This document shows, piece by piece, positions 15,441 through 60,641 of a stretch of DNA of 64,000 nucleotides. The translations under genes and the position numbers were made by a program. The stretch's first letter is position 1. Each line of letters starts with the position of its first letter. The stretch is from Planctomycetota bacterium (GTDB lineage: Bacteria > Planctomycetota > JACOTG01 > JAJDCM01): NCBI GenBank assembly GCA_029260825.1, contig JAJDCM010000059.1:13098-77097 (forward strand). Direction: 5' to 3'. The notes beneath the pieces were generated by a model. The model was given only the letters and a program-made list of their open reading frames with translations. It ran no database searches and had not been told where the DNA came from.

Positions 15441-15732
15441 TGGCGGGTTGCGGAGTCTTCACCGGGCCTTTGCCCTGACTGAATTGAAGTTCTCGAACTC
15501 GATGATCGAAGCTGGTGGAGAATTTGACGAAAAGCGTAGGAAGTCGCCCTACTCCAAGAGTAGATCCGGATCAAGGGGTACGAGAATGCTTCGGGTTCCT
15601 CCGTTCCGCGGAAGTCTCATGGCCAGGTCGTCTTAAAGAAGTCAGCCTCCCGAGCCTTTACCCGTCGTCCGCAATGCTCTATCATCGGGTCAGTAAAGGC
15701 TTTGGTTGTGGCGTTTTCGTGGAGGATTCCCA

Positions 15733-16860
15733 ATGTCCAATGACAAACGTTTCTTTCTATGGATTTGTGTGTGGCTCGTTGTCGGTCAGGCCGCTCATGC
15801 GCAACCACGCCCCACGCCGGGCCGACCCGCAACTATCGGGAATACAACCGCACCAGACGCACCGCGGCCGAAGCTCCCTTGGGTTCCTCTCCCCGATCCG
15901 TCAGAGGTTGCCCCCCCAATCGACCCCACGATTCCAACAACAGTCTTTGCCGCAACCGAGTTCCTCTACTCTGGCCCCAATCCTATCCAGGTCGGCGTCA
16001 GTCCAGGAACGATTGTCCCGTCAAGAGTGGCAGTACTCAGGGGCAGAGTTTTGGACCGCTGTGGCCAGCCCGTATCGCGGGTGAGGGTCCGAGTACTTGG
16101 TCAGCAGCAGTACGGTTGGACATTCACACGCCCTCGAGACGGAATGTTCGATCTCGTTGTCAACGGCGGCGGGCCACTAACTCTGAAGTTCGTCAAGGAC
16201 GGATACCTGGAGGTACACCGCACACCGGTCGCACCCTTGCAGGACTACCTTTTCCTCGACGATATCTGCGTGACGACACTGGACTCACAAGTCACGTCGA
16301 TCGATCTCACTTCAGGCCGTCCCATCCAATGTGCGCGAGGCAGCATCTCAAGTGACAATGACGGCAATCGGCAGGCGACGCTGCTCTTCTGCCAGGGCAC
16401 GGAAGCCACGATGAGGCTTCCGGATGGCACGTCCAAGCCTCTGAGCGCGTTGAATGTCCGCGCCACCGAGTACACCGTCGGCCCAGATGGTCCAGAGGCA
16501 ATGCCAGGCGGACTCCCCCCTACGAGTGCGTACACTTACTGCGCAGAGTTCACCGTAGATGAGGCAATGGCTGCCGGCGCAAACACGGTTGAGTTTTCCC
16601 AACCGGTATATTTCTATGTGGAGAACTTCCTCGGTTTCCCCGTCGGCGGCATCGTCCCCACGGGATCCTATGATCGAGTGAACGGCCTCTGGGTGGGATC
16701 TGACAATGGAATCGTGATTGCTATCGTCTCCATTTCCTCCGGCATGGCAAATTTGGACCTCGACGGCGACGGTCAACCCGAAATGGCTCAAGCCTACGCG
16801 GACCTAGGAATCACCGAAGACGAGCGCATTGCGTCGAAAAGGGTCCCCTGGAAAACGTGA
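15733..16860 (+). CDS. Secreted protein resembling the N-terminal part of teneurin/Rhs-like YD proteins (CarboxypepD_reg/TTR-like domain), apparently truncated
   Basis: ggagga RBS 6 nt before the ATG at 15733. Signal peptide MSNDKRFFLWICVWLVVGQAAHA. Pro-rich linker. Carboxypeptidase-regulatory-like block RVAVLRGRVLDRCGQPVSRVRVRVLG...DGMFDLVVNGGGPLTLKFVKDGY. The ORF stops at 16860, and the ~800 bp after it contains no convincing gene. Confidence 0.45.
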   Translation: MSNDKRFFLWICVWLVVGQAAHAQPRPTPGRPATIGNTTAPDAPRPKLPWVPLPDPSEVAPPIDPTIPTTVFAATEFLYSGPNPIQVGVSPGTIVPSRVAVLRGRVLDRCGQPVSRVRVRVLGQQQYGWTFTRPRDGMFDLVVNGGGPLTLKFVKDGYLEVHRTPVAPLQDYLFLDDICVTTLDSQVTSIDLTSGRPIQCARGSISSDNDGNRQATLLFCQGTEATMRLPDGTSKPLSALNVRATEYTVGPDGPEAMPGGLPPTSAYTYCAEFTVDEAMAAGANTVEFSQPVYFYVENFLGFPVGGIVPTGSYDRVNGLWVGSDNGIVIAIVSISSGMANLDLDGDGQPEMAQAYADLGITEDERIASKRVPWKT

Positions 16861-22103: not shown

Positions 22104-22952
22104 ATGACCTCGCTTTCAGCCTCTGACTCCAATCTTCACCGGAACTCGTTTCGATCAGCCCTCGTCCTGGCGGCATTGAGCAGCCTCTCCCACGGCTGCT
22201 CCTCCGCAAGCCTCCCGACCCAACCTGAAGAAGCCTCGCTTCAACCGGCCGTCATTCGTGCGTTCGCCAAACCAAATCCCGAGGCCGATGCTACCGATCA
22301 AACCTCGGTTGAGACCGACGAGACTCTCTCCATCGAGCTGGCCTTCATCACCCACCTGGAGATGAACCTCCCGGAACAGGACGTCTACATCGAACGAGAG
22401 CCAGGATCCGGAGAAGTCTTCCGACCCACCCAGGGAGATAACGACATGTCGGCGCTCCTTTACAAGACCGCCGTCACCGTTCCCCACAATCCATTCGACC
22501 CGGCGCAGATCGGCCCGCACCCCAAAGGCGAGTCATTTGGCATGACCCTCGGGGAATGGCTCGCCCACCGGGGCACCGGGGTGTACGCCGCCAAAGATGG
22601 AGCGGGAACCCTCGACCTCGAGTTCACCGGCCTCGTCCCCCGCGGGATCTACACCCTCTGGCACGTGTTCGGTGCCTTTCCACCGACCAAGCCATTCTCG
22701 GGCACTCTGAAGCTGCCGCTCGGAGCTCGAGATGGCTCGGAGAGTGTGTTCACAGCGGATGAACAAGGCCGAGCTCGCTTCCGCCACACCTTCACCCCGG
22801 AGCTCGAGCTGTCCGATGTCTGGACCCGCTCCATGCTCGCGCTGAACTACCACAGCGACGGCAAGACATATGGAGGACTCCCGGGCGATTTCGGCCTGAA
22901 CGCCCACATCCCCCTGTTCGTCATGCTCCCGTTCCGGGACGGCTTGCGATGA
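22104..22952 (+). CDS. Hypothetical lipoprotein (possible periplasmic partner of the downstream di-heme enzyme)
   Basis: Lipobox LSSLSHGCSS. 282 aa. Sits immediately upstream of a MauG/CCP-family gene. Confidence 0.6.
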   Translation: MTSLSASDSNLHRNSFRSALVLAALSSLSHGCSSASLPTQPEEASLQPAVIRAFAKPNPEADATDQTSVETDETLSIELAFITHLEMNLPEQDVYIEREPGSGEVFRPTQGDNDMSALLYKTAVTVPHNPFDPAQIGPHPKGESFGMTLGEWLAHRGTGVYAAKDGAGTLDLEFTGLVPRGIYTLWHVFGAFPPTKPFSGTLKLPLGARDGSESVFTADEQGRARFRHTFTPELELSDVWTRSMLALNYHSDGKTYGGLPGDFGLNAHIPLFVMLPFRDGLR

Positions 22953-23029
22953 ACAGCACTGCAGACGACCGACGACCCTTTCTCCGACCCCCTTTCAAAA
23001 CTCCACTCCAGAAAGAAAGGATTCATGCC

Positions 23030-24289
23030 ATGAAAGTCTTCCTCTCCCTTTTGTGCGCCGCGCTCTGCGCAAACAGCGCCGAAGCTCGAAACCCCGAAAG
23101 CGAGTTCCACGGCCAACGCACCCTGCCAGATTCCGTCACAAATAGAGACTATTATGATGATGGCGCTCCCTCCCCGGCCAAGGTGGAGTTAGGACGATTA
23201 CTGTTCTTCGATCCGATCCTGAGCGGCAACCGGAACATCTCATGCGCCACGTGCCACCATCCGAGCTTCGGCACTTCGGACGAAGTCTCGCTGTCCCTGG
23301 GGGAGGGGGCTAAAGGACTCGGTCCGGATCGTATTTCGTCTCGGTCCCACATCGGAGGTGTTTACGAACGCATCCCCCGGAACTCACCCGCCCTGTTCAA
23401 TCTCGGCGCAAGGGAATACACCGTCCTCTTTCACGACGGTCGTGTCGAGGTGGACAAGAACGCGGGCTACGAGAGTGGCTTCATCTCTCCCGCACGCTGG
23501 AAGCTCCCTCGAGGACTGAGCAACGCTCTGGCTGCCCAGGCCATGTTTCCCGTGACCTCACCGGCTGAGATGGCGGGACAGCAAGGAGAAAACCCGATCG
23601 CCGACGCCCGCGCGCGCAATCAGGTGGGCGGCGAAGGAGGTGTCTGGGATCTCCTGACCCTTCGACTCCGCTCCATCCCGGAGTACAAGGAGAGATTCTC
23701 GGCGGCGTTTCCGTCGGAAGTGAGAATCACCGACGACATCGACATGGTCCTGGCGGCGAACGCGATCGCCGCATTCGAAGCTCACTCATTTCGAGCGGAC
23801 CAGAGTCCCTTCGATCGCTACCTTCGGGGAGATGAAAACGCATTGAGCTCAAAAGAGGTCCGGGGGATGAACCTCTTTTACGGCAAGGCGAGCTGCAGCG
23901 CTTGCCATTCGGGCAAGTTTCAAACCGATCATGGATTTCACGCCATCGCCATGCCCCAGGTCGGTCCGGGAAAGTCGGACGGCTGGGATTCAGGCTACTG
24001 GAGCAAGAGTGGATACCAGGCGTTTCCAGAGGATCAGGGGCGGGGCCGAGTGACCGGCCGGATCGAAGATAACTACCGCTTCCGAACACCATCGCTCCGA
24101 AACGTAGCCCTGACCGCTCCCTACGGCCATAGCGGAGCCTATCCCTCCCTGGAAGAAGTCGTGCGCCACCATCTCCAACCCGTCGCGACGCTCCATGCAT
24201 ACGATGGGTCGGCCGCCTCCCTCCCGCCCCTGAACTTTGTCCTCGAGCACTCGGCCCGCGGTTCCTCGTTTCTTTCCTCCACTCCTTGA
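23030..24289 (+). CDS. Di-heme cytochrome c peroxidase / MauG-family enzyme
   Basis: Signal peptide MKVFLSLLCAALCANSAEA. Two heme-binding motifs CATCHH and CSACHS. Family block FRTPSLRNVALTAPYGHSGAYPSLEEVVRHH. Confidence 0.8.
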   Translation: MKVFLSLLCAALCANSAEARNPESEFHGQRTLPDSVTNRDYYDDGAPSPAKVELGRLLFFDPILSGNRNISCATCHHPSFGTSDEVSLSLGEGAKGLGPDRISSRSHIGGVYERIPRNSPALFNLGAREYTVLFHDGRVEVDKNAGYESGFISPARWKLPRGLSNALAAQAMFPVTSPAEMAGQQGENPIADARARNQVGGEGGVWDLLTLRLRSIPEYKERFSAAFPSEVRITDDIDMVLAANAIAAFEAHSFRADQSPFDRYLRGDENALSSKEVRGMNLFYGKASCSACHSGKFQTDHGFHAIAMPQVGPGKSDGWDSGYWSKSGYQAFPEDQGRGRVTGRIEDNYRFRTPSLRNVALTAPYGHSGAYPSLEEVVRHHLQPVATLHAYDGSAASLPPLNFVLEHSARGSSFLSSTP

Positions 24290-30286: not shown

Positions 30287-32476
30287 CTAGTTCTGAATCA
30301 AGACCTCAACACCATTCGTGATCGAGACCCTTCTACCACTCGTATCACTGTTGTCCCGGGTTACCCCCTGGAGCCAGAGTCGTTCGCCCGCAAGGAACAA
30401 TCCCGATGGGAAAGTCATGATGATTGCAGGCGCCTGGTTGCCCGTTGCCTCAGCGGTTGCACAAAGCACCGCATTGCAGCGACCCGGGATCGTCTTTGCC
30501 GAATAGGCAGGACAGGGATTGCAAGTCGAACTCAAAGGATTGAGACACATGGGGCCGAGCCCAAAGGGAAGCTCGACCGGCGCCGCGGAACCGGGCGCTT
30601 CATTCCAGCCCCAGATCGCGTAGTTCGGCGCTACCGGGCCACCGATCCCCGCATCGAGGAACACATCAATGACATCCAGTCGGGAGATCGACGCGACTCG
30701 TTTCGGCCCAAGGCCCGAGCTCCCGTTCACGGTGAGAACCCGCTCGGGACTTCTTCCCGCATCTTCACCCACATTCCCCGCCCGGCAAGCATCGCCAAAG
30801 TCAGGAAGGAACGTCTGGTTCACGTTGATGAGATCGTAGGTGCTCGACACATTGGCTGCCCAGGTAAAGTCGTCGTACTTGGAACCCGACCCCATGAGTT
30901 GCAGCGACACCCCGATGGGGGTGGTCCCGGTTTCGACAACACCGACATCCACGGAAGTCATTCCCGATGCCGGCCCACCGACTGCGGCCATGGTTCCTTC
31001 ATAGCTCAAAAACTGGACCACGTTCTGTTGATTGTCGACCAGAGCCATGCCATCCGGACCACCGTTTTGCAGTCCGAGCACGGGGAAGAAGGATGTGCCA
31101 AAGCCATTCTGCTGGTCGGGAAGAACACCGCTCAAGGGAATCGTGGAGTATTGAGCCCCACCATTGCCGTTATAGCCCACCAAGCTCCAGCCCGAAAGAT
31201 TCAGGCCACTTGGTCCGGCGATTTCGATCCCCTCGTTAGCATCCGTTCCCGAATTGTCGTAGTGGAACTCATTGATCCAGGGTTGACCCGCAGACCCGGG
31301 ACAGGGGATCATCCCTGTGGGTTCACCCAAGACTTCAGCGCTCGGCCCACTCTCGTTGTTCGAGATATCAACGGCAGTCACGTAGTAGAAATACTGGGCA
31401 AGATTCTCTGCGCTCGAATCCACATAGGTACTTGGGCCAACAAGACCGGCGTTCAGCTTGACGTATCCCTCACCCTCATCTCGATACACGTTGTAACCAA
31501 GCAGATCGGGCTCGACGTTATCGTCCCAATCCAGGGTCAGAGAACAATCCCCGCCCATGGTGAGCAGGCTCATGGGCTCGACCGGAGGAATCATGTCTCC
31601 GCCCGAGCAAGACCAGATCTCACAGACCCACTCGGGGTGATCGATGAAAGGATTACGATTCCCCTGGAATCCGAAAACAGCATCGTTCCGATCCCGCTCC
31701 CAGTCATCGACGGGATCTTCCGCATTCCAATCAAGAAGAGTGTCGAGAATCCCCATGTAGGCAGGAGAGAAGTTACTCGATGAGTTGGATTGGATGAGGT
31801 TTCGATCGTTCGTCAGAATGAGGTCCGGTTCGACGCAACCCGTATTTCCGTGGGTTCCCCCCTCATAGCGCACAGCCATGTAAAACATGGCTCGAGCAAC
31901 ATCGCCTCGGCGCTCGATCCAGACTTCCCAGGCCCCGGTATTTCCGGCGCCGGACCCACGGTTCACTTCAGGTGAGCCATCCACCGGATAATCAGTACAC
32001 GCAGCGACGCACTCGTCATAGACCCGATTTCCGCGTGCCGAGTTGTAATTCCAGAAAGCGGCAAAGAGCTGATGGCAATCCGTGTAGGCGGAATTACAGC
32101 CACCGTCCTGAGAGAATCCATAGGAATTCGGCCACGAATGCTCCCGATTCCAGCCCACTCCAGCGGTGTGGTTATTCTCATCAAAGGACTCGTTCTTGTA
32201 GACACTGACCACACGAGTCATGTCCAGCGGATCCTCGTCAGCAGCAGACACGATGTCCCACGTATCCGTCGATCCACTGGTGTAGGGAAATCGCGTATGA
32301 TCATCGATGATGGCATGAACGGCGTTTCGCAAAGCCGTGCCGCTCAGACCCGTCGCCGAGTCGTAGTAGCCCGGTGGAGGATCCGCCGTCGCCGGAGTAG
32401 CAGTCCACACAAGTGATGAAAAAGCGAGAATGGAGAGAGAGCCTCTCCACCCATGGGTGGTTTTTAAGTGACGCAT
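30287..32476 (-). CDS. Secreted extracellular endonuclease I-family nuclease with lamin-tail domain, Fn3 domain and shared CTD
   Basis: Signal peptide MRHLKTTHGWRGSLSILAFSSLVWTATPATA. Endonuclease-I blocks PPPGYYDSATGLSG..L..L...I, NREHSWPNSYG and DCHQLFAAFWNYNSARGN. LTD-like block (SGTDANEGIEIAGPSGLNLSGWSLVGYNGNGG). Fn3-like block (GYNVYRDEGEGYV). C-terminal CTD ending RRVSITNGVEVLIQN. Confidence 0.8.
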   Translation of the reverse strand: MRHLKTTHGWRGSLSILAFSSLVWTATPATADPPPGYYDSATGLSGTALRNAVHAIIDDHTRFPYTSGSTDTWDIVSAADEDPLDMTRVVSVYKNESFDENNHTAGVGWNREHSWPNSYGFSQDGGCNSAYTDCHQLFAAFWNYNSARGNRVYDECVAACTDYPVDGSPEVNRGSGAGNTGAWEVWIERRGDVARAMFYMAVRYEGGTHGNTGCVEPDLILTNDRNLIQSNSSSNFSPAYMGILDTLLDWNAEDPVDDWERDRNDAVFGFQGNRNPFIDHPEWVCEIWSCSGGDMIPPVEPMSLLTMGGDCSLTLDWDDNVEPDLLGYNVYRDEGEGYVKLNAGLVGPSTYVDSSAENLAQYFYYVTAVDISNNESGPSAEVLGEPTGMIPCPGSAGQPWINEFHYDNSGTDANEGIEIAGPSGLNLSGWSLVGYNGNGGAQYSTIPLSGVLPDQQNGFGTSFFPVLGLQNGGPDGMALVDNQQNVVQFLSYEGTMAAVGGPASGMTSVDVGVVETGTTPIGVSLQLMGSGSKYDDFTWAANVSSTYDLINVNQTFLPDFGDACRAGNVGEDAGRSPERVLTVNGSSGLGPKRVASISRLDVIDVFLDAGIGGPVAPNYAIWGWNEAPGSAAPVELPFGLGPMCLNPLSSTCNPCPAYSAKTIPGRCNAVLCATAEATGNQAPAIIMTFPSGLFLAGERLWLQGVTRDNSDTSGRRVSITNGVEVLIQN
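30290..30760 (-). other. Shared C-terminal domain (CTD) instance 3 (most divergent)
   Basis: RVLTVNGSSGLGP...NYAIWGWNEAPG...GPMCLNPLSSTCNPCPAYSAKTIPGRCNAVLCAT...SGRRVSITNGVEVLIQN. Confidence 0.65.
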
Positions 32477-32651
32477 TGCCCCCCTCGAAACGACGATCCA
32501 CTGTCTAGGAAAACGGCATGAGTTACCGAACAAGCAGCGGCTATCCTAGTCCTTTTGTATCGTTATGGAAATGGGGAAAACGGGGGAAAGGGTGCTTCTG
32601 GCCCGGCTTTTGGGAAACCGTCACATGTCACGCAGGTAGGAGGAGTTGAAC

Positions 32652-33695: not shown

Positions 33696-35792
33696 ATGAC
33701 ACGATTCGTTTCTTCTCCAAGACGCCGCGGGACCCGGATTCGCAGGATCGGTCTCGGCATCCTTACGTTCGTTTTCACCTGGCTTCTTTTCGTTCCGGTT
33801 CAAGCCGATGCGCCGCTGACCACCGGAAACGCCGTCGCTGTTCTCTCCCCCTCAAAGAAACAGTCCTCGGTCACGGCGAACATCCTTCTCGAACTCAAGC
33901 GATCTCACTATCGCTCGGGCCTTCGGTTCAACGATGCGCTCTCCTCAAAACTCCTGGACAGCTATCTCGAAGGACTTGATCCCAGTCGTAGCTTCTTTCT
34001 TCAGTCCGATGTCGACCGGTTCGATTCGTTTCGTCACGAGCTTGACGATGCAATCAAGGAAGGAGACCTCGACCCGGCGTTCGAGATCTTCAACCTGTTT
34101 CAGGAACGACGGATCGAGAGGAATCAACACATCTCCTCGCGGCTTGAAGATGGCATCGGCAAGATCGATTTCACGGTCGATGAAAAGCTCGAGCTCGATC
34201 GAGACAAGAAGCCATGGCTGAGCTCTCAGTCCGAGCTGGAAGACCTCTGGCGCAAACAGTTCAAATACGACGTACTGAGCCTGAAGCTCGGCGAGAAAAC
34301 GGATGAGGAAATCACCAAGGTTCTTTCTCGTCGCTATGAAAACCAGCTGCGACGAATGCGCCAGACGAACACCAAGGATGTGTTCCTCACGTTCATGAAT
34401 ACTCTCACCATGAGCTACGACCCTCACACCCAGTACTTCCCGCCTCACGAATCAAAAAACTTTGACATCCGAATGAGCCTCTCGGTAGAGGGCATCGGAG
34501 CCCTTCTTCAGAGCGACCAGGACTACACCAAGATCGTTCGCATCATTCCCGGCGGCCCTGCGGAAGCAAGTGATCTCCTGAAAGCCGCCGATCGCATCCT
34601 GGCGGTCGGGCAGGACACAGAAGGTGAGATGGTTGATATTGTGGGCTGGAGAATCGACGAAGTTGTGGACCTGATTCGAGGCCCCAAGGGAAGCCAGGTT
34701 CGTCTTGAAATCCTCCCGGCCGGCATCTCTAGCCGAACCGAATCCAAGCTGATTCAACTCACCCGAGACAAGGTAAAACTCGAAGAACAGGAAGCACAAA
34801 AAAAGATCCTGACCCGCAAGAAGAACGGAAAAGACTACAAGGTCGGCGTGATCGAGCTTCCCGCGTTCTACATGGATTTCAAGGCCGCGCAGGCAGGCGA
34901 CCCCAATTACAAGAGCGGCACCCGAGACGTCCGAAAACTCATCGGCGAGCTCAAGAAAGAGAACGTTGACGCCCTCGTCCTCGATCTTCGGAACAATGGC
35001 GGTGGATCCCTTGTCGAGGCTCGAGAACTCACCGGCGCATTTCTCCGAACCGGGCCAGTGGTTCAAATTCGAGACTCGAACGGCTATCTCCAGATTCTTG
35101 CCGACGAGGACAAAAGCATCGCCTGGTCCGGACCTTTCGCCGTCCTCGTCAATCGGCTGAGTGCTTCTGCATCGGAGATCTTCGCCGGGGCCATTCAAGA
35201 CTATGGCCGGGGCATCGTGCTCGGAGGGCGCACCTTTGGAAAGGGAACCGTCCAGAATGTGAGACCACTCCGGGAAGGCGACATCAAGCTCACTCTCGCC
35301 AAATTCTATCGGGTCTCCGGAGGAAGCACCCAGAACCGAGGCATCACGCCTGACATTCCATTCCCGGACATCTACGACGAAGATGAAATCGGAGAAAGCT
35401 CTCTACCCGAAGCTCTTAAATGGGACAGCGTCGCATCCCTCGAAGTCAAGAAGGACAACTTCATCCCTTCCATCCTTCCAGCCCTTCGCCAGCTTCATGA
35501 TCGAAGAACCAAGAGCGATCCCGAATTCCAGTACATTCTCGATCGGGCGGAATTCAGCCGCAAGATGAGAGAAGACAACTCCATCTCCCTCAACACGGAA
35601 GGCCTGAAGGCCGAGCGAGCAAAGACCGAGGAAGATGCACTGAGAATCGAAAACAAGAAGAGAATTGGTCTCGGTCTTGAGCCGGTGAAGAAACTCGCCG
35701 ATCTTGAAGACCCGGACGCCGAAAAGAGAGATGATCCAGTGGTTGTCGAAAGTGCCGACATTCTTGTCGACCTGATGACGCTGGCAAAATAG
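33696..35792 (+). CDS. prc: Tail-specific (carboxy-terminal processing) protease, S41 family
   Basis: S41 blocks GVIELPAFY, ALVLDLRNNGGGSL, ASASEIFAGAIQDYGRGIVLGGRTFGKGTVQ. N-terminal TM/signal. Length ~700 aa is typical of Prc. Confidence 0.85.
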   Translation: MTRFVSSPRRRGTRIRRIGLGILTFVFTWLLFVPVQADAPLTTGNAVAVLSPSKKQSSVTANILLELKRSHYRSGLRFNDALSSKLLDSYLEGLDPSRSFFLQSDVDRFDSFRHELDDAIKEGDLDPAFEIFNLFQERRIERNQHISSRLEDGIGKIDFTVDEKLELDRDKKPWLSSQSELEDLWRKQFKYDVLSLKLGEKTDEEITKVLSRRYENQLRRMRQTNTKDVFLTFMNTLTMSYDPHTQYFPPHESKNFDIRMSLSVEGIGALLQSDQDYTKIVRIIPGGPAEASDLLKAADRILAVGQDTEGEMVDIVGWRIDEVVDLIRGPKGSQVRLEILPAGISSRTESKLIQLTRDKVKLEEQEAQKKILTRKKNGKDYKVGVIELPAFYMDFKAAQAGDPNYKSGTRDVRKLIGELKKENVDALVLDLRNNGGGSLVEARELTGAFLRTGPVVQIRDSNGYLQILADEDKSIAWSGPFAVLVNRLSASASEIFAGAIQDYGRGIVLGGRTFGKGTVQNVRPLREGDIKLTLAKFYRVSGGSTQNRGITPDIPFPDIYDEDEIGESSLPEALKWDSVASLEVKKDNFIPSILPALRQLHDRRTKSDPEFQYILDRAEFSRKMREDNSISLNTEGLKAERAKTEEDALRIENKKRIGLGLEPVKKLADLEDPDAEKRDDPVVVESADILVDLMTLAK

Positions 35793-39403: not shown

Positions 39404-41893
39404 CTATTCCTCCTTCTCTTCTTCCTCTTCGGTGAGATCAACGACTATTTCCAGTTCCTCGACTCCCTGTTCTCCGAGGAGATCAAGGTCAATCGTCTCC
39501 GACCTGTGGACAAGAACCTGCGGCCCCATCAACAGGCCTCCGTCCTCACCAACGGCACCGGAGAAGCTAACCGTATAGCTGACATTCCCGCCGGAAGAGA
39601 AGACCCCACTTTCTCCATTCCCGGCAGCGTTCGACAAGACCATCAGGTCGGCAACCCCGCCGCCACTATCCAGGAGTCGCGTCCTGACTCCCGCGAAAGC
39701 GCTCGCGGAAAGACCGAGCTCATTCTCAAGGACGCCAAAGTTGTTCTGAAACAATCGCTGGGTATCGGACAGAGCAAGGGCAGCCCGAGCCCGGCTCCGA
39801 TCCATGGTCATTCTCACCCGCTCAAACCCGGATCGAAGGTCTACATCCTGAGAATGAGAAACCATTCCCCCGAAAACGGCGTTGGCCTGGAGGATCTTCC
39901 GAGGAAGGGGATGGATGCGAAAGACCCCGCCTCCGATTGAAACGGCCTGAACGGTCGAAGTGCTGAATTCGGGACGCTTGAATGACCCAGGATGGAGGGA
40001 GTCTCCTGATTCCCGACGTCGATCCTTGGTTCGGGGGTGGAACTCAAGCCCGCGAATCCCCCGGACATCATTGAATGCGAACCGAAAATCGCTGACCTGC
40101 TGAACATGGTTCAAGGCCAGTGCTTGATCCATGAGTATCTGCCCGTTCATCTCCTGTTTGAGCCGAGTCAACATATCAGACCGGGAAGTCTTCGACATTC
40201 TCCCGCTCAGGTCGGCTTTGGCCTGGACAAGATCGACCCCATTTCGTCCGAAAGAAAACTTGAGACCCGAGAAGGCCCACGCTCCTTGAAGATCATCCTC
40301 GCCGGGGAAAGCGACACCTGCTTCGTCCATGAGCTCGACTTCCAGAGTCGCAGCTTCATTCAGGACGAGATCCATGCGAGTCCATTCTCGAGGGTTCAGG
40401 ACGACCTTCTTTACCTTTCCCACGGGCAGGCAAGTCGCCTCGAAGACTCGAAGGAAGTAGGTTCCTGCGGCAAGATCGGGAAACGCAAATCCCTCCCCCA
40501 CTCGAGCCGTCACGATCGTCTTCTTCTTCGTATACCCACAAGCAGAACAGGACTCTTCTCTTTCCCATCCGAGATCCTCTTGAGGATCGCCCGTCAGATC
40601 GGCTGCTTTCTTGATCTCGCCCTCCGTCTGGGGAACGAAGCACCTTTTGCAGGGCCGTCTCCCGTCTCCGAAGAGATGAACGGAAAGAGGTGTCTCCTGA
40701 TCAAAATGACTGGCGAGAATCTCGCCTTCGATCCGCGCGCTCCCCGGTTCAAGGGCAATCACACCGAGGTCCGTTAGCTCCCCGGCCAGAACCTGGAACT
40801 CATCCAGATAGAAGACCTCGTGGCCCTTGCTCGTAACGCTCGCTTCATAAGAACCCGGACTGAGCAAGGTTTCCTTCATCTTCTCGGCGCTCGTCTTATC
40901 TTCGGCGTATCGCTCTTCGCTCAGAAAACGAATCTTCGCTCCAATGGGTTCCCGGGTAACTCCATCGACAACCTGATAAGAGACCTTACCAGCTTCTAGC
41001 ACCGGTGGAGCGGCCAAAGGATCGGCCGGGGTAGCTTGCGCAGCCTCACTATTTTCTTCCAAAGAGAGCGAGACGAGATCGGGATCAGTGCTCTCTACCA
41101 ATGCCATCTCAAGAGTCTCGCTCGAGTGCTCCGAAGGCGGAACCTCAGAGGAACCGCTATCGGACCACAGCTCTCCGCGCCCTCGGTTTTCCGTGATGCT
41201 CTCCTCCCCTGAAGGAAGTAGGACATACAGCAGTCCTCCGACAAGAAGAGCCAATGCGCCTACGATTGCAATCTTGCTTCCCACCACGACTCCTCCTGTT
41301 GTCAGGGCGCCCGCAGAAATTCCCGAAATCGCAAGAGCATCGGGATTCAAACCAGAAAATGCAACGAGTCCGGTGAGCCAGGTACCTCGGTCGCCAACAT
41401 GAGCTTGATCGAGCTGAGCTCGAAGGCGTTTTCGCCCTCGAAACAATCGAGCCCTTACGGTTGCCACGGGAACAGCGAGCTTGTGTGCAATCGCCGTGGG
41501 TGACAGGTCTTCAAAATAACGAAGGATGATCGCCTCCCGATACGGATCGGAAAGCTGAAGAACCGCATCGGTGATCTCCCTCTGAAAGGCAAGGCGAAGG
41601 ACGATGGTCTCGGTTGATTCAAGAGCTTCTGGCCGAGCCGAACGCTGCTCATGAACCGCCCTGCGTCCTTCTCTGCGGTGAACTTTGTAGGCCGCATTCC
41701 GGGTTACCCGGGAGAGCCAGGTCAGCACCGCCTCCGAATGTTTGGGAGGTTTTCGGAGGGCGGCAAGCCATGTCTCCTGGACAAGGTCTTCCGCTGAATC
41801 CGGGTCGGCGACGAGAGCCCGGGCAAGCTTCTTGACGAACCCTTTGTGGGTCAGCCAAACTTCCGGGCGCAAGGGCGTAAGAGTGTCGGTCAT
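39404..41893 (-). CDS. One-component membrane-anchored ECF sigma factor: N-terminal sigma-2/sigma-4 domains fused to a TM helix and a ~560-aa extracytoplasmic domain
   Basis: Sigma-2 (DLVQETWLAALRK...WLSRVTRNAAYKVHRR) and sigma-4 (DPYREAIILRYFEDLSPTAIAHKLAVPVATVRARLFRGRKRL). TM helix IAIVGALALLVGGLLYVLL. Long C-terminal domain with Cys pairs and an acidic EEEEEKEE tail. Confidence 0.7.
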   Translation of the reverse strand: MTDTLTPLRPEVWLTHKGFVKKLARALVADPDSAEDLVQETWLAALRKPPKHSEAVLTWLSRVTRNAAYKVHRREGRRAVHEQRSARPEALESTETIVLRLAFQREITDAVLQLSDPYREAIILRYFEDLSPTAIAHKLAVPVATVRARLFRGRKRLRAQLDQAHVGDRGTWLTGLVAFSGLNPDALAISGISAGALTTGGVVVGSKIAIVGALALLVGGLLYVLLPSGEESITENRGRGELWSDSGSSEVPPSEHSSETLEMALVESTDPDLVSLSLEENSEAAQATPADPLAAPPVLEAGKVSYQVVDGVTREPIGAKIRFLSEERYAEDKTSAEKMKETLLSPGSYEASVTSKGHEVFYLDEFQVLAGELTDLGVIALEPGSARIEGEILASHFDQETPLSVHLFGDGRRPCKRCFVPQTEGEIKKAADLTGDPQEDLGWEREESCSACGYTKKKTIVTARVGEGFAFPDLAAGTYFLRVFEATCLPVGKVKKVVLNPREWTRMDLVLNEAATLEVELMDEAGVAFPGEDDLQGAWAFSGLKFSFGRNGVDLVQAKADLSGRMSKTSRSDMLTRLKQEMNGQILMDQALALNHVQQVSDFRFAFNDVRGIRGLEFHPRTKDRRRESGDSLHPGSFKRPEFSTSTVQAVSIGGGVFRIHPLPRKILQANAVFGGMVSHSQDVDLRSGFERVRMTMDRSRARAALALSDTQRLFQNNFGVLENELGLSASAFAGVRTRLLDSGGGVADLMVLSNAAGNGESGVFSSGGNVSYTVSFSGAVGEDGGLLMGPQVLVHRSETIDLDLLGEQGVEELEIVVDLTEEEEEKEE

Positions 41894-42055
41894 TGATCCG
41901 CGAGCCTCCAGAGTATCCTGTTTCCAGGGATAAAGACCCCGCTGAGAGCGGAGCGGATGCAAGGATTGCCAAAATAATGCAATCCCTACTCCATCTTACG
42001 CTCAGGAGCCGGATCTTGCTCCCAAAGGATCACCTGGGGCCCGGGAAAGACCGAT

Positions 42056-50480: not shown

Positions 50481-52127
50481 ATGATCAATACAAACGATCT
50501 TCCCCGATTCGCCGATCGACTTCTCCTCACCGCAGGGGCTCTTTTCCTCCTCGCCTCCGCGGCATTTGCCCAGCCCGGCCCGCCGCCGCCACCGGAAAAT
50601 CCGATCACCCCCCGGAAGACACTCCTGGGAAAGATCCTCTTCTGGGACGAGCAGCTCTCGAGCGACAACACGATCGCGTGCGGCACCTGCCACCTCCCCG
50701 AATTCGGTGGAGGTGATCCTCGGACCGTCGGCACTCCCGGGCTCGACGGAATCCTCGGAACCGACGACGATGTCTTCGGATCGCCCGGTGTCCCCGCCTC
50801 CGATGCGGACAACCGATACATCCCCCATCCCGACTTCGAGTTTCAACCCCAGGTAACGGGACGCATCAGCCCGAGCTTCATCGGAGCCTCGTTCTTTGGC
50901 GTGCTCTTCTGGGACGGTCGAGCCGGGTCCGAGTTCATCGATCCTCAGACCGGCGCGGTCAGCATCGTCAGCGGTGGAGCGCTCGAGAACCAGGTCGTGG
51001 GACCTCCCGTGTCCGACGTCGAGATGGCCCATCAGAGCCGGGACTGGTCCGAAATCGTGACCAAACTCGAAACCGTGATTCCTCTCAAACTCGCCACGAA
51101 TCTACCGCCGGATGTGGAGGAACACCTGAACGGCCTCCCCAGTTATCCCGCCCTGTTCTTCGCGGCGTTCGGCGATCCTGTCATCACTAGCGAAAGGATC
51201 GCTTTTGCCATCGCCACCTACGAGAGGACGTTGATTCCCGGCCTGACCCCGTTCGATCGATTCGTTGCCGGAGACCAACTCGCTCTCACCGCGCGCCAGC
51301 GGACCGGTCTCACTTCCTTTAACTCGGTAGGCAACTGCCTGAGCTGCCACGCTGGATTCTCGTTCTCCGACGGTAACTTCCATAACATTGGAGTGCGTCC
51401 CATCGCCGAGGATCCAGGACGCCAGGCCATCAGCGGAAATCCCGATGATGCCGGCCGCTTTCGCACCCCGTCGCTGCGCAACGTCGGCCTGCGACCTCGT
51501 TACTTCCACAATGGACGCTTCTCTTCTCTCACCGAAGTCGTGGAGTTCTACGATCGGGGAGGCGACTTCTCCGCGAACCGGTCGGAACTCATCGAACCCC
51601 TCAACTTGACGGCAGCCCAGCGAGAGGCAATCGTCGATTTCCTCCAAAACGGTCTTACCGATCCCCGGGTTAGGTTTGGATTCCCGCCCTTCGATCGTCC
51701 GACTCTCGGTTCCGAGTTGCCCCCGTCGCCCGAGATTTACGGCGACACGTCCCAGGGATCGGGTGGCACCGCCCCGTTAATGCTTGCCCTCACACCGCCT
51801 AGCATCCCAAACCCCGACTTCCGTCTTGGAGTCGGACGGGGCCTCGGAGGAGCGCGAGCCTTTCTCGTGATCTCCGGCCTTCCAACCCCGGATGGCACAG
51901 TGTTCCGGGACATCCCCCTCAATGTGAGTCTCGATCGGCAGCGACTGGTGCGAACTTTGACCCTCGACGGGGTGGGGCCGGGACAGGGTTTTGGAACCTT
52001 CAAAGGAAACATCCCGAACGACCCACGCCTTATAGGTAGAGACTACTACGCCCAGTGGTTTGTCGAGGACCCGGCAGCCACCGGAGGCTTCGCGGCCAGC
52101 GCGGGCGCGAAACTCGAACTCTACTGA
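50481..52127 (+). CDS. Di-heme cytochrome c peroxidase / MauG-family enzyme (second copy)
   Basis: Signal peptide. CGTCHLP and CLSCHAG heme motifs. FRTPSLRNVGLRPRYFHNGRFSSLTEVVEFY. Confidence 0.85.
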   Translation: MINTNDLPRFADRLLLTAGALFLLASAAFAQPGPPPPPENPITPRKTLLGKILFWDEQLSSDNTIACGTCHLPEFGGGDPRTVGTPGLDGILGTDDDVFGSPGVPASDADNRYIPHPDFEFQPQVTGRISPSFIGASFFGVLFWDGRAGSEFIDPQTGAVSIVSGGALENQVVGPPVSDVEMAHQSRDWSEIVTKLETVIPLKLATNLPPDVEEHLNGLPSYPALFFAAFGDPVITSERIAFAIATYERTLIPGLTPFDRFVAGDQLALTARQRTGLTSFNSVGNCLSCHAGFSFSDGNFHNIGVRPIAEDPGRQAISGNPDDAGRFRTPSLRNVGLRPRYFHNGRFSSLTEVVEFYDRGGDFSANRSELIEPLNLTAAQREAIVDFLQNGLTDPRVRFGFPPFDRPTLGSELPPSPEIYGDTSQGSGGTAPLMLALTPPSIPNPDFRLGVGRGLGGARAFLVISGLPTPDGTVFRDIPLNVSLDRQRLVRTLTLDGVGPGQGFGTFKGNIPNDPRLIGRDYYAQWFVEDPAATGGFAASAGAKLELY

Positions 52128-56077: not shown

Positions 56078-57817
56078 ATGAACCAAGCCACTGCAAAAGG
56101 ACAGACTCCGTCGCCACACTCGGGCAAGAAACTTCTGAAACGCACGATTGCAACGATCTTTGTGCTAGCAGCGGTCGCCGGAATCGCTAGCTTCTTGGTC
56201 CCTTTCCTCGAGAAAGACCCAGCCACCTATCCGCAAATATCCGCCGAAGTAGAAGGTGACGTAACCAACGTGTCGCCAGGAGAGGATGTCCTATTTCGCG
56301 TTTCCGCTAAAGCCAACAACTTGCCCCTTTCCGGCGCAGCGGTAACGGCCGAGTTCAGTACCGGCGATGGAACAGGGATCATGCAGTCCTTTGCCAGTGG
56401 AACTACGGACAGTAGTGGCGCATACCTTGTCCGCTGGACCTACCCGACCAGAGGCAGCGATGAATACTCACTACGATTCGCAGTTGAGAAGAAAGGGTAC
56501 AAACCCGGATACTGCACCATCGTCGCAACGTGCCTGCGAGAACCCGAAGACATCGTCCTGGAACTGTCGGTGATTCCCAATACCGTCGCCGAATCCGCTC
56601 AATCAACCATTACCGCCTGTGCTCTTGACGGCTCCCGGCAGCCGATTGCGGGCGCCCACATCCAGCTGCGTAGCACATCCGGTCAATTCTCTTCGTCAAA
56701 GACCAACTCACTGAACAGCCAGACGGATAGTAGTGGCAATGTCCAGGCCCAGTGGACTGCCCCCAGCATCAAAACCGCTACGCAAGTAACCGTGGTCGCG
56801 GAATGCACCAAGCCTGGATACATCAAGGCCCAGCAACAGCAAGTTGTTCGAATCCAATCACGCCCCCCCGACCCCCAGCTGAACGCAGTGATCCAGGTCC
56901 AGCCAAAGAATGTGGTTGCCGGGGAGCTAGCAAACATCGTCGTGGTTGCAAGGGGAACCGACCAAAGACCCCTACCCGGCTGCGACGTGAGAATCTCGGC
57001 TCAAGCCGGACAATTCGTCGGATCAAACTCAGGTTCACTCTTCGCCAAGACCGATGGACAGGGCGCCGTGAAGACCCGGTGGAGAATGCCGGCACGGGGC
57101 TCGACGTCCTATCGGATCACCGCAGAAGTGTCAAGAACGGGCTACCGCTCCAGGTCAATTCAAGAAACGGTCGCGCGAAAGACCCTACCCCTGAAAAACC
57201 TGGAGATCCGAATCTCGGCGAACCCCAACCCCATCCCCGTCGGCGGTCGAGCGACGGTCGCAGTGACCGTCTACTCCCACGAAGACAAGCGCCCGGTTTC
57301 CGGAGCGGACCTGGTCTTGAACTCGGGCGCTGGAAAGTTTTCCACCTCCCGCACGACAGCGTTGTCCGCCAGAACCGGGAGCAACGGAACGTTTCACACG
57401 GAGTGGGAACACCCCTCCGTCGCCTTTGATATTCAGATCGGAGTTAGCGTACGGAAGGCCGGGTTCAAGGAAGGGCGCTCAGACGTCATGATCAAGGCCC
57501 AGAGTACCCGGCCTCGCCCTCCCGCCCCTCTGCATCTCCGGATATCCGCAGCACCGGCTTCGGTGCGACCCGGGAAGACCACCCAGATCGTGGTTGCCGC
57601 GAGCGCCGGAGGACGTCCTGCAGCAGGCGCCGCCGTTCAGCTCAACGTGGGATTTGGCCAGTGCGTGCCTTCTCGAGGCGTAAGCGACTCCCAGGGGTTG
57701 TTTCGGTCCACGTGGATCTATCCGAAACGAGGAGCAAATGGCTATACGATCGGTGCTACAGCGAAGAAAACCGGGCACCTGGAAGGGCGCGGAAGCTTCA
57801 CGGTGAAGCGACGCTGA
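56078..57817 (+). CDS. Membrane-anchored protein with five tandem ~100-aa Ig-like (Big/invasin-like) repeats
   Basis: aaggagaag RBS. N-terminal TM IATIFVLAAVAGIASFLV. Repeats share GA.V.......G.F.....T...A.TD..G.....W..P......Y...A...K.GY. Confidence 0.75.
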   Translation: MNQATAKGQTPSPHSGKKLLKRTIATIFVLAAVAGIASFLVPFLEKDPATYPQISAEVEGDVTNVSPGEDVLFRVSAKANNLPLSGAAVTAEFSTGDGTGIMQSFASGTTDSSGAYLVRWTYPTRGSDEYSLRFAVEKKGYKPGYCTIVATCLREPEDIVLELSVIPNTVAESAQSTITACALDGSRQPIAGAHIQLRSTSGQFSSSKTNSLNSQTDSSGNVQAQWTAPSIKTATQVTVVAECTKPGYIKAQQQQVVRIQSRPPDPQLNAVIQVQPKNVVAGELANIVVVARGTDQRPLPGCDVRISAQAGQFVGSNSGSLFAKTDGQGAVKTRWRMPARGSTSYRITAEVSRTGYRSRSIQETVARKTLPLKNLEIRISANPNPIPVGGRATVAVTVYSHEDKRPVSGADLVLNSGAGKFSTSRTTALSARTGSNGTFHTEWEHPSVAFDIQIGVSVRKAGFKEGRSDVMIKAQSTRPRPPAPLHLRISAAPASVRPGKTTQIVVAASAGGRPAAGAAVQLNVGFGQCVPSRGVSDSQGLFRSTWIYPKRGANGYTIGATAKKTGHLEGRGSFTVKRR

Positions 57818-58099: not shown

Positions 58100-60409
58100 T
58101 TACTCCACGCAGAGTACAATCGCGTTCGTTACGCTGAAATCCAGGCCTGACGCACTGCCCTGATCCTCCAGCAACCCCTGAAATGTGAGCTTGACCGGAT
58201 TGCCGATCCCCCCTGCTCGGGTCAGTGAGAACGGAGCTCGGGACGGACTTGGCATCTCGTTGGTATCCCGGCAGACAAGACCCGGCATCCCGGTCGACCT
58301 CAAACAGAACAATGGTTGCGGACCAATGGGCTGAAACGGCGTCGGCCTGGCAAAAGTCCCGATTTGGGCCCCCGCAGCCGTGAGGATATGGCCCTGAACA
58401 TTGCTCAGATCTCCGGGCCACACCCAAAGAGCATAACGAGCGTTCGCAAAAGGGCCGCTCGAACTTAAAGCCAAGGATACCGACAACGACTGCCCCGTTG
58501 CGGTCGTTACTGTGCGGTCGAGTCCTCCGTCGTCACCATTGATGCGCAGAACAGCCTGCCGCGTGCCCGCCCCCCCGAGATTCACGTTCCCGCTAATGGG
58601 ATCGAGAACAGAAAACCCGGACGATCGAACCACGACTCCATCCTGCTCGATGATCCAATTCCAATCTCCCTCCTGCGTATTCGCAAGATCTCTCACCGGC
58701 CACTGAAACCGCGACCATCCGTATCGTGTGGAACTCCCCACGGTGAACGAGAATTCATAGTGTGGAGGCGAACCGGGAGCGGGGGGAAGCAGCTTGACCG
58801 TGAACTCATCCGGCGACGATACTGTGCCGGCCCACTGGAGCCAGAACCAAACCAACTCACTCCCGTCAAAGGGGCCAATGAACTCGGAAACAACGGCAGG
58901 ACGTTCGGTGTACTCAAGCCGCGAAGGCGCGGAATCCGTCGTGCCCGCGTCAAGAATGGTAAGAGTGTTCTCCTGGTAGGGCCACCGGGCCATCCACAAG
59001 TACTCGCTGTTTCCGAAGTCGCCTTCGAATGGATCTACCAGATCGCCGTCTTGAACCTGTCTCCGATACGGTGGGTTCAGCACGGCGAAATGAAGGTGCG
59101 CGTCTGACGAACTACCGGAAGAGCCGACCTCTCCGATCTTCTGGCCACGAGTCACCGCATCGTTCACGGAAACGACGATGGAGTTCTGACGAAGGTGGGT
59201 ATACCAGGTACGCTGCCCGTTGTCGTGCTCGATGATGACCATGTTCCCGCTCCCGATACAGCTCCCTCCCGGGACTCCACATACGTTGCGGTCAAAATTG
59301 CCATCAATGGTCTCGACGACAACACCGTCCGCCGACGCAAGCACGGGTACTCCTTGATCCATCTGCTCAAAGTTGCGCAGGGTAAGATCGGTGCCATTAT
59401 GGTTGTCATACAACCAGGAACCACCGGTATGGTCGGTCATGCCTGATGTCGCATCGTGATCCTGATAGTTCACAAGAACCCAATCTCGGTTCGGAACTCC
59501 ACCTATCGGCAACCCAAGTTTCAAAATATCCGAGTCCGGAGCCTCCCAGATCGACAGATATCGGAGAACCCCCTCTTCGTCAGGGTAGGCGGCAATATCG
59601 AAAAGACAGTAACCCTGTCCGGCTTTCAGGGTGAAGAGATCTTGATACTCGGACGAAGACATGTGCCCCCAAGAAAACCGCACCACATCGGGCGTGGATC
59701 GCCAGACCTTCGTGAAACGGGCTCCGAAACCGGGTACTTCAAAAGCACCGACACTCTCGGGTTGAAGTGGACTCGGCGCAACCTCCCAGTCGAACTGGTG
59801 CCTCGACATACCATGACGACCCGAAAAGCCGGCTCCATCTTGATGCCAGATGGCAACGAAACGGACCTCGCCATTCAGAAGGTAACCCTCCACATCAAGA
59901 AGACTGTACCCGAGCCCCGCAAAGTGGCTGAACCACGTCTGATATTCAGTTGTCGTCATGTGGGAACGCAAGGCATGCACAACACCCGGGTCGTGGTGCC
60001 AGACGGCGGCGAAAGCCGGTTCACTCCCGTTTCCCGGGTTGTATCCACAAACCGACACGGGTTTGAAGCCCTGGTCTCGATACGTGATCGCGATCGTTTC
60101 GAAATCATTCCTCGATAACCCGACCTCCGTACGGCGATTCTGCGCCGGATCGTTGGAATTGAAAGGGCTCCAGATCGCACTGAACGAAGTGCTCCCACTG
60201 CTTGTTATGGCCGCATCAAGCTTGCTCGGCCGCCAGGAGTCCTCATATTGGACAAGGCGCTGGGAGAGCTGGGAGCTGCTCATTCCATGGTGTGCGACGA
60301 ACCCGGACGACGCATGGCCAGAACGCATCATCCCGAGCCCGGACCCGAAGGATAGGCCGCACAAGAGAGCGTGGATTCCAATCCGAAGCAAGCCGTTTCG
60401 ATTCTTCAC
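58100..60409 (-). CDS. Secreted M23-family (LytM/lysostaphin-like) metallopeptidase with three N-terminal aromatic repeats and shared CTD
   Basis: GTG start with AGGAGA RBS 6 nt upstream. Signal MKNRNGLLRIGIHALLCGLSFGSGLG. Three ~55-aa W...EYQ...GY.L.D...Y....RY.AIW repeats. M23 block VLASADGVVV...GNMVIIEHDNGQRTWYTHL...VTRGQKIGEVGSSGSSSDAHLHFAV. CTD at the C-terminus. Confidence 0.75.
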   Translation of the reverse strand: MKNRNGLLRIGIHALLCGLSFGSGLGMMRSGHASSGFVAHHGMSSSQLSQRLVQYEDSWRPSKLDAAITSSGSTSFSAIWSPFNSNDPAQNRRTEVGLSRNDFETIAITYRDQGFKPVSVCGYNPGNGSEPAFAAVWHHDPGVVHALRSHMTTTEYQTWFSHFAGLGYSLLDVEGYLLNGEVRFVAIWHQDGAGFSGRHGMSRHQFDWEVAPSPLQPESVGAFEVPGFGARFTKVWRSTPDVVRFSWGHMSSSEYQDLFTLKAGQGYCLFDIAAYPDEEGVLRYLSIWEAPDSDILKLGLPIGGVPNRDWVLVNYQDHDATSGMTDHTGGSWLYDNHNGTDLTLRNFEQMDQGVPVLASADGVVVETIDGNFDRNVCGVPGGSCIGSGNMVIIEHDNGQRTWYTHLRQNSIVVSVNDAVTRGQKIGEVGSSGSSSDAHLHFAVLNPPYRRQVQDGDLVDPFEGDFGNSEYLWMARWPYQENTLTILDAGTTDSAPSRLEYTERPAVVSEFIGPFDGSELVWFWLQWAGTVSSPDEFTVKLLPPAPGSPPHYEFSFTVGSSTRYGWSRFQWPVRDLANTQEGDWNWIIEQDGVVVRSSGFSVLDPISGNVNLGGAGTRQAVLRINGDDGGLDRTVTTATGQSLSVSLALSSSGPFANARYALWVWPGDLSNVQGHILTAAGAQIGTFARPTPFQPIGPQPLFCLRSTGMPGLVCRDTNEMPSPSRAPFSLTRAGGIGNPVKLTFQGLLEDQGSASGLDFSVTNAIVLCVE
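58103..58591 (-). other. Shared C-terminal domain (CTD) instance 5
   Basis: GNVNLGGAGTRQAVLRINGDDGG...RYALWVWPGD...IGTFARPTPFQPIGPQPLFCLRSTGMPGLVCRD...SGLDFSVTNAIVLCVE. Confidence 0.75.
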
Positions 60410-60641
60410 AAGACATCTCCTTGGTTTTCTGAGTTTCCGGCCTCGATCAGAGCCCACAGCTCTCTGCAGCTGGCGCCTTGCGCCCTTCCCGTCGAGACTT
60501 CTGCCCCCAAAACACGAAAACGACAAGAGCCCCGAACCAAAATCTGAATTTTTATCGGAGGAGGATGACCCCGGCGGTCCCCTGGCCAACAAGCCTCTCT
60601 TGAGACACCGCCTGACGCCCCACTTCCGTTATAATCCTGTC

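Follow-up and report, generated by a model that had tools for sequence, protein, structure and literature searches.

To our knowledge, nearly all mechanistic understanding in this field derives from sigma and anti-sigma factors that are separate proteins. The SigI/RsgI systems of cellulolytic clostridia are paralogous sigma pathways in which varied extracellular sensors sit on single-pass proteins and signaling involves intramembrane proteolysis. A single-chain arrangement is represented by IutY of Pseudomonas putida (placed in ECF243), the sigma/anti-sigma hybrid of aerobactin cell-surface signaling; here an extracytoplasmic function (ECF) sigma domain of ~168 amino acids (aa) is directly followed by a transmembrane (TM) segment and then by a domain in the periplasm, no anti-sigma factor is encoded by a gene of its own, and the sigma domain must be freed by Prc and the site-2 protease RseP before the protein becomes active (PMC5411451, PMC8999054). 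The actinobacterial groups ECF48, ECF52, and ECF53 carry a C-terminal extension in which one or two TM helices are combined with an extracytoplasmic part (carbohydrate binding in SCO4117 of Streptomyces coelicolor), and proteolytic activation has been proposed for them (PMC8999054, PMC5826349). The Planctomycetota encode dozens of ECF sigma factors per genome (on average ~40, a figure cited in PMC7826278), almost none of which has been studied, and long, diverse C-terminal extensions have been described for these proteins (PMC7671368). Here, we analyzed a gene in a 64,000-nucleotide (nt) stretch (the window) of contig JAJDCM010000059.1 from a Planctomycetota bacterium (assembly GCA_029260825.1) that encodes an 829-aa protein with an ECF sigma module, a single TM helix, and a large C-terminal domain. 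Since ECF sigma factors with membrane-spanning C-terminal extensions, notably planctomycetal ones, have already been described (i.e., IutY and ECF48/52/53; PMC8999054, PMC5411451), this protein belongs to a known kind. The initial annotation of the window called the architecture rare; it is indeed uncommon among ECF sigma factors overall, but it is frequent in Planctomycetota, where cases were already on record.

The gene and the parts of its product are listed below (coordinates refer to the window).

39404..41893, minus strand: complete gene of the 829-aa ECF sigma-TM-ectodomain protein (open reading frame [ORF] list, translation, hydropathy, codon composition)
41660..41851, minus strand: sigma-2 region, aa 15-78 (Pfam PF04542, Sigma70_r2; E = 1.4e-13; 50.9 bits, cutoff 24)
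41423..41581, minus strand: sigma-4 region, aa 105-157, the helix-turn-helix reading the -35 element (Pfam PF08281, Sigma70_r4_2; E = 1.9e-13; 50.2 bits, cutoff 25.7)
41354..41413, minus strand: post-sigma-4 juxtamembrane motif LD....G.R..W..aL.PL, aa ~161-180 (conservation, AlphaFold2 [AF2] helix)
41210..41278, minus strand: single Gly-rich TM helix, aa ~206-228, KIAIVGALALLVGGLLYVLLPSG (hydropathy; AF2 helix at aa 209-225)
41009..41209, minus strand: acidic Ser/Pro/Ala-rich linker predicted to be disordered, aa 229-295 (composition; predicted local distance difference test [pLDDT] score <50; no secondary structure; not conserved)
40709..40996, minus strand: predicted transthyretin/CarboxypepD_reg-like beta-sandwich 1, aa ~300-395; R322 and R328 (RFxSExRFAE) are conserved
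40319..40696, minus strand: predicted beta-sandwich 2, aa ~400-525, with an inserted Cys4 element (conservation; pLDDT mostly >90)
40532-40669, minus strand: Cys4 element GxGRxPCxxC...CxxCG[YF], aa 409-454 (nearly invariant in a 145-sequence alignment)
39794..40276, minus strand: predicted beta-sandwich 3, aa ~540-700 (strands at aa 544-560 and 646-698 with pLDDT >90)
39989-40024, minus strand: conserved DRxRxxxDxLxP motif within beta-sandwich 3, aa 624-635
39407..39793, minus strand: C-terminal tail, aa 701-829 (low confidence, pLDDT <50)
39407-39433, minus strand: acidic C-terminal run TEEEEEKEE (...DLTEEEEEKEE; translation)

A single unbroken minus-strand ORF extends from a TTG codon to the stop codon at 39404-39406 (39404-41962). 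The in-frame ATG at 41893 is favored as the start codon because the resulting N-terminus lines up with the starts of relatives, giving 829 aa. An identical protein (P0001) is present as one copy in an NCBI-derived collection.

A scan for the sigma clade using one genome per GTDB species yielded 80 loci, at 52 of which the related sigma gene is 600 to 1,215 aa long, often with several such genes per genome. A hydrophobic helix is located at residue ~180-230 in 45 of these 52 long relatives (hydropathy threshold, 1.8), and the other 7 have none at this threshold. The loci are nearly all from metagenome-assembled genomes (MAGs) of Planctomycetota, together with a few Myxococcota and the cultured Engelhardtia mirabilis Pla133, and up to four come from one MAG (CALCXM01: L001, L012, L024, and L035). 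The more distant matches belong to Acidobacteriota and further phyla and are ordinary ECF sigma factors of 150 to 290 aa. The closest named protein, from "Planctomycetota bacterium JB042," shares 51% identity across the sigma part. Starting from the other end of the protein, a word-indexed search with the C-terminal 599 aa returned only the protein itself. The homolog search suggested for the C-terminal domain was productive when performed exhaustively with HMMER on 1.84 billion representatives, with 154 relatives at E <= 1e-3 (110 of them at E <= 1e-10). Among the 150 best representatives (clusters), 46 carry an N-terminal ECF sigma domain, which is followed by a hydrophobic helix in 42.

These counts bear on the possibility, raised in the initial annotation, that a frameshift or lost stop codon near 41250-41400 artificially fuses an ordinary ECF sigma gene with the membrane protein gene that follows it. 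The idea stems only from the usual size of ECF sigma factors (~200 aa) and the existence of standalone ectodomains, and we found no support for it. The G+C content at codon positions 1, 2, and 3 is ~0.65, 0.45, and 0.6, respectively, throughout the ORF, the sigma/TM junction included, and this constant pattern gives no sign of a frame change; according to the ORF list, the junction contains neither a stop codon nor an alternative frame. The motif in the linker ahead of the membrane is conserved, the 52 long relatives come from other species, and the same fusion is found in the 46 protein clusters. Because the architecture recurs in many independent genomes, the frameshift explanation fails; we consider it effectively refuted and extremely improbable. 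The sigma domain, the TM helix, and the C-terminal domain thus form one genuine polypeptide, as had been proposed.

The N-terminal part is a sigma factor of the ECF type, in agreement with the initial annotation. Sigma70_r2, Sigma70_r4_2, and the NCBIfam model TIGR02937 (sigma70-ECF; 72.5 bits, cutoff 42.9) all matched above their cutoffs, and a profile of the family matched the solved ECF sigma factors SigE, SigL, SigW, AlgU, and RpoE (best E value, 1e-23). None of the NCBIfam equivalog or subfamily models reached its own cutoff for this protein. The core-binding motif EDLVQETW lies in the sigma-2 region (pLDDT >90), and its residues E35, D36, V38, Q39, E40, T41, and W42 are invariant in the 53 aligned clade members (i.e., the 52 long relatives and the protein itself). 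The linker joining sigma-2 to sigma-4 is short (26 residues; aa 79-104), and neither Sigma70_r3 nor Sigma70_r1 gave a Pfam match at E <= 1. On the basis of these domain scores, the absence of sigma-1 and sigma-3, and the short linker, the protein is a member of the ECF (group 4) sigma-70 family. Its sigma domain contains no Cys, as is also the case for 38 of the 53 clade members; no sigma-domain column of the alignment reaches 15% Cys, and one linker column beside W172 is Cys in 12 of the 53 sequences.

The hydropathy profile (Kyte-Doolittle; 19-residue window) has one strong peak (2.69 at aa 208-226) and a weak shoulder (<=1.67 at aa 185-205) that is variable or absent among relatives. The TM helix contains the helix-destabilizing residues G212, G219, G220, and P227, and residues of this kind are typical of the TM helices of site-2 protease substrates. 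Between the end of sigma-4 (aa ~165) and the TM helix, there are ~40 residues (aa 166-205). No Cys or His motif of a zinc finger was found in this segment, and the protein has no hit to zf-HC2, RskA, or any other anti-sigma Pfam family at E <= 1. The proposal that the same chain also provides an anti-sigma function, at least in the usual sense of the term, is therefore unsupported.

What the segment does contain is the juxtamembrane motif, in which W172 is conserved in at least 90% of the 53 clade members, whichever ectodomain they carry. AF2 predicts a helix within this motif (aa 169-179; pLDDT ~87-92), which could act at the membrane interface, help determine protease recognition, or serve as a miniature inhibitor. 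If the last of these applied, the W172 helix would fold onto sigma-2/sigma-4 as a miniature anti-sigma factor, and inhibition would be relieved by movement of the TM helix or by proteolysis. Such autoinhibition would account for the conservation of the motif and for a confidently predicted helix directly after sigma-4, and short two-helix anti-sigma elements do exist (e.g., NepR and CnrY, for which structures in complex with the cognate sigma factors are available; 5uxx was among the fold matches and the CnrH chain of 4cxf among the profile matches). However, 20 residues are far fewer than in any described anti-sigma domain, the motif has no sequence similarity to such domains, and its conservation could equally be explained by a role at the membrane interface or in protease recognition. 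We therefore regard autoinhibition by this helix as rather improbable.

The likely topology is N-in/C-out: the sigma domain must be cytoplasmic and is followed by a single TM helix, so that the C-terminal part should be extracytoplasmic. Two features of the ectodomain relatives point the same way. Most complete members of the 104 clusters in which the ectodomain module has no sigma domain have a signal-anchor helix at the N-terminus, within ~25 residues of the start. Heme c attachment occurs in the periplasm, and the presence of a heme c-type CxxCH motif in 47 of the 150 ectodomain representatives thus supports this location as well.

The C-terminal domain is, as had been noted, large, Cys containing, and Glu rich at its end, but it comprises ~600 aa (229-829) rather than 560. 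Its membrane-proximal part is acidic (17 D+E against 3 K+R at aa 201-300). An AF2 model built with the 145-sequence alignment had a mean pLDDT of 75.7 (35 with the single sequence), with values mostly >90 at aa 10-180 and 295-700 and <50 at aa 226-290 (linker) and 722-829 (tail). In this model, the extension consists of three transthyretin/CarboxypepD_reg-like beta-sandwiches, with CnaB domains named alongside, and the third sandwich holds a poorly predicted helical insertion (aa ~565-620). The seven-stranded transthyretin-like fold characteristic of CarboxypepD_reg (PF13620) is present in the model; the Pfam match itself is below the gathering score (16.2 bits, cutoff 32.3; E = 0.014), and the profile match to PDB 5aq0 has an E value of 0.044. 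Foldseek ranked tandem pilin or adhesin stalks at the top.

The conserved stretch of the ectodomain covers aa ~290-530 and reaches aa ~700 in the closest relatives P0002, P0003, and P0005 (30 to 34% identity); the region of beta-sandwich 3 is matched solely by the closer relatives. Five Cys residues occur in the C-terminal part (415, 418, 449, 452, and 488), of which C415, C418, C449, and C452 are kept in 135, 128, 102, and 138 of the 145 aligned relatives, respectively. Other positions of beta-sandwich 2 (G409, G411, R412, G453, F471, L474, G477, and Y479) are conserved in at least 90% of the sequences, and F..LA.G.Y.LR is a further conserved motif; D624, R627, and L633 in the third sandwich are kept in 130, 133, and 127 of the 145 sequences. 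The Cys4 knuckle probably either binds a structural metal or forms a pair of disulfides. Its region resembles the zinc-ribbon protein L32 only marginally, at a level that is not significant (profile match, E = 0.16). The Cys4 beta-sandwich module is not covered by Pfam. The C-terminal tail is not conserved in most of the ectodomain family, and P0002, P0003, and P0005 likewise have acidic tails (common segment, ...ELEI.V.D...).

Compared with IutY, the protein has the same order of parts in one chain, i.e., the sigma module, the TM helix (aa 206-228), and the outer domain of ~600 aa. The two differ in size and in the outer domain: IutY has 374 aa, its periplasmic domain is of the FecR type, and it works together with a TonB-dependent receptor whose gene is adjacent, whereas the present protein has 829 aa and, by prediction, three beta-sandwiches with a Cys4 insert. 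No FecR domain was found in it by Pfam at E <= 1, and there is no TonB-dependent receptor among the ten Pfam-scanned ORFs between 28493 and 46711. The SigI/RsgI pathways keep sigma and anti-sigma factors apart and SigI is not of the ECF type, unlike the single chain without an anti-sigma domain described here. The ECF48, ECF52, and ECF53 proteins belong to another phylum, have other ectodomains, and carry a zinc-finger anti-sigma element (ZAS-like; HxxxCxxC) between sigma-4 and the membrane, which this protein lacks, all its Cys residues being at 415-488. ECF57 (formerly ECF01-Gob) and the duplicated clusters of Pinto and da Fonseca (2020) are from the same phylum and also have several paralogs per genome. 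ECF57 has been reported to have WD40-like repeats and a conserved pair of Cys residues that link sigma-2 to sigma-4 (PMC8999054). By these described traits, our protein is different, with a Cys-free sigma domain and a clade whose extensions are CarboxypepD_reg-type arrays in 47 of 53 aligned proteins (a beta-propeller domain was found in 1 of the 53) and not WD40 repeats.

One sigma clade bears many unrelated ectodomains, and the module of the present protein was detected in only one of the 52 long relatives (L007), weakly. Conversely, the module occurs without a sigma domain in 104 of the 150 ectodomain clusters, and fused and unfused forms are intermixed in a neighbor-joining tree of the ectodomain. 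As to whether the standalone ectodomains are merely the second halves of split sigma genes, no adjoining sigma gene was called at three of four loci (P0004, P0006, and P0010); tblastn with the sigma domain, applied to the P0004 loci only, also found none. At the fourth locus (L089:167-6618; JGI 3300046817), the standalone P0008 directly follows a full-length fused paralog of 760 aa, overlapping it by 4 nt, and is followed in turn by a 126-aa ORF, an MbnB/DUF692 gene, and an HvfC_N/DUF2063 gene. This gene order resembles that of bufferin/Hvf-type operons for metal-binding peptides. P0008 is one of the CxxCH-containing members, which include both fused and standalone forms (e.g., P0008, P0009, P0013, and P0014); the motif, a signature of heme c, is mostly located ~10 to 50 residues from the C-terminus, hints at a redox- or heme-linked subfamily, and is absent from the protein studied here.

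This distribution could mean that a mobile sigma-2/sigma-4 cassette was duplicated and inserted ahead of an already existing gene encoding a membrane-anchored beta-sandwich protein. The ectodomain would then retain its own role in structure or in the envelope rather than being a dedicated sensor, and sigma activity would be set mostly by expression level or constitutive turnover. The prevalence of sigma-less modules, the lack of called sigma genes beside P0004, P0006, and P0010, the interleaving of fused and unfused forms in the tree, and the variety of ectodomains within one sigma clade all fit this explanation. Exactly such an origin was proposed for planctomycetal extensions by Pinto and da Fonseca, the sigma modules being duplicated and gaining unrelated C-terminal extensions (PMC7671368), and several copies per genome have been reported for some planctomycetal ECF groups (PMC7826278). 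However, the retention of the sigma-TM fusion across dozens of species and many paralogs, together with the juxtamembrane motif, argues for selection on the combined protein, and an origin by capture is compatible with a sensory function at present. We therefore consider it unlikely that the ectodomain is a mere by-product of cassette movement. A broader and more speculative scenario, which we regard as possible rather than probable, is that a portable cassette (sigma-2, sigma-4, the W-motif helix, and the TM helix) has been repeatedly grafted in Planctomycetota onto independent membrane-anchored beta-sandwich proteins, creating signaling pathways without an anti-sigma factor. The Cys4 module would then be one such captured and undescribed family, absent from Pfam, whose heme c motif in about one-third of its members may suggest redox or metal sensing, and the W-motif helix may represent a novel minimal element for regulation or processing that the whole clade shares.

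On the analogy of IutY, we lean toward the interpretation that the protein is a single-chain transmembrane signaling sigma factor, sequestered at the membrane and then released by regulated intramembrane proteolysis. In the cytoplasm, the ECF sigma module (aa 1-165) and the short W172 juxtamembrane helix would be anchored by the Gly-rich TM helix, with ~600 residues (i.e., the acidic disordered linker, the three beta-sandwiches, and the acidic tail) facing the periplasm. In the intact protein, the sigma module would be held at the membrane in an inactive or strongly restricted state. A signal that alters or destabilizes the ectodomain would lead a periplasmic site-1 protease to trim it, a Prc/Tsp-type enzyme being one candidate, and a site-2 metalloprotease of the RseP type would then cut in or near the TM helix. 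The freed soluble sigma factor (~20 to 23 kDa) would bind core RNA polymerase and turn on its regulon. The orientation and the release by proteolysis are inferences, as are the kind of signal and the genes targeted by this protein; release of this kind is a reasonable extrapolation from IutY. The Gly/Pro-rich TM helix, the disordered membrane-proximal linker, and a Tsp/Prc gene located 3.6 kb away are compatible with it without constituting proof.

Several points weigh against release by proteolysis in response to a signal. No sequence feature demonstrates cleavage, and the N-in/C-out topology comes from hydropathy and inference. The proximity of the Prc gene is not kept at the loci of P0002, P0003, P0005, and P0031 and may thus be a coincidence, and Prc prefers C-termini that are small and hydrophobic (PMC5411451), which the acidic one of this protein does not resemble. 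No enzymatic or known ligand-binding fold was found among the fold matches of the ectodomain, which looks like a generic stalk of beta-sandwiches, and the upstream and locus comparisons revealed no autoregulatory promoter and no conserved neighboring target gene or partner.

The sigma factor might instead work uncleaved, in the manner of the membrane-bound transcription factors ToxR and CadC, with the ectodomain acting allosterically or by oligomerization and polymerase being recruited to membrane-proximal promoters. ECF holoenzymes leave the C-terminus of sigma-4 free, and ECF41 and ECF42 tolerate large C-terminal extensions (PMC7826278, PMC8999054); here, the ~40-residue linker ahead of the TM helix and the absence of any anti-sigma domain needing removal also suit tethered activity. 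However, IutY, the sole experimentally studied protein with the same layout, requires RseP-dependent release (PMC5411451), a membrane-bound holoenzyme would be poor at searching the chromosome, and the TM helix is Gly rich like those of intramembrane protease substrates. Tethered activity is therefore an unlikely alternative in our view, and proteolytic release is the reading that we retain.

The region upstream of the gene contains several sequence elements, as follows.

41894..42055, minus strand: upstream intergenic region (palindrome, hairpin, and GGAAAC-N17-CGCGGA)

A perfect 7-bp palindrome (GGATTGC-N9-GCAATCC) is present at 41963-41985 and a GC hairpin at 41938-41957. The sequence GGAAAC-N17-CGCGGA (41894-41925), ending 3 nt before the ATG codon, would, if real, be a candidate leaderless ECF-type promoter. 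None of these elements is conserved in relatives, and no sigma-70-type promoter was found in the region (1.3 expected). The initial annotation had suggested looking here for a conserved ECF promoter motif of the gene itself; none was found. Among the sigma-clade relatives, 9 of 52 (L015, L017, L018, L020, L024, L025, L026, L034, and L046) have a bipartite motif, CCAAC-N14-16-GGCA (more fully, CCAAC(A/G)C-N12-14-(C)GGCA(A/T)), located 41 to 48 nt ahead of the start codon. This top word pair, found in nine sequences, is only just above the maxima of shuffled controls (6 to 8), and the motif is a candidate autoregulatory ECF promoter of that subclade. It is absent upstream of the present gene and its closest relatives, and the window holds a single match to it, at 55625, which is no more than chance would give.

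The ten ORFs scanned with Pfam between 28493 and 46711 include DUF547, two SDRs, an FAD/4Fe-4S oxidoreductase, a GDSL lipase, Tsp, and Endonuclease_1. Apart from an Endonuclease_1 gene near P0002, no adjacent gene is common to the window and the loci of P0002, P0003, P0005, and P0031. The window contains no paralog or second related sigma gene and no Rfam family. Its other features of interest are listed below.

33696-35792, plus strand: tail-specific protease Tsp/Prc (TSP_NTD, PDZ, Peptidase_S41, DUF3340), 3.6 kb from the sigma gene
30287-32533, minus strand: Endonuclease_1 gene (~740 aa), a few kb from the sigma gene; also at the P0002 locus (L083:1805-4003), the only shared synteny
22949-24289 and 50481-52127, plus strand: two di-heme cytochrome c peroxidase/MauG-family genes
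9485-12220, plus strand: 911-aa Ser/Thr protein kinase with an FGE-sulfatase (sulfatase-modifying-factor-like) domain fused at its C-terminus
12493-13971 and 13968-15440: two sulfatase genes after the kinase-FGE gene
56078-57817 and 15706-16860, plus strand: two proteins of Big_1/CarboxypepD_reg/macroglobulin-like or teneurin TTR-like beta-sandwiches
58100-60592, minus strand: 830-aa protein with polyglycine-hydrolase-like BTRD1 repeats and Peptidase_M23, similar in length to the sigma-ectodomain protein and unrelated to it

The two beta-sandwich proteins (56078-57817 and 15706-16860) are of the same fold class as the ectodomain, yet they have no detectable sequence similarity to it. With its sulfatases, the kinase-FGE fusion, and similar genes, the window has a content in keeping with Planctomycetota.

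The Cys4 beta-sandwich module, its wide occurrence in fused and unfused forms, and the conserved juxtamembrane motif appear to be undescribed so far. For annotation, the lesson is that such "sigma factors" of 800 to 1,200 aa are real genes and not misassemblies. The protein illustrates, cleanly and at full length, an arrangement that is widespread in Planctomycetota: the sigma factor doubles as the transmembrane receptor, and no anti-sigma domain is present. The protein will not surprise specialists, and it offers a good, testable example of a poorly studied way of signaling. If release by intramembrane proteolysis holds true, the mechanism of IutY would be a general strategy and no longer a single curiosity, and the set of fused and unfused ectodomains would represent a natural experiment on how signaling pathways arise by domain capture.

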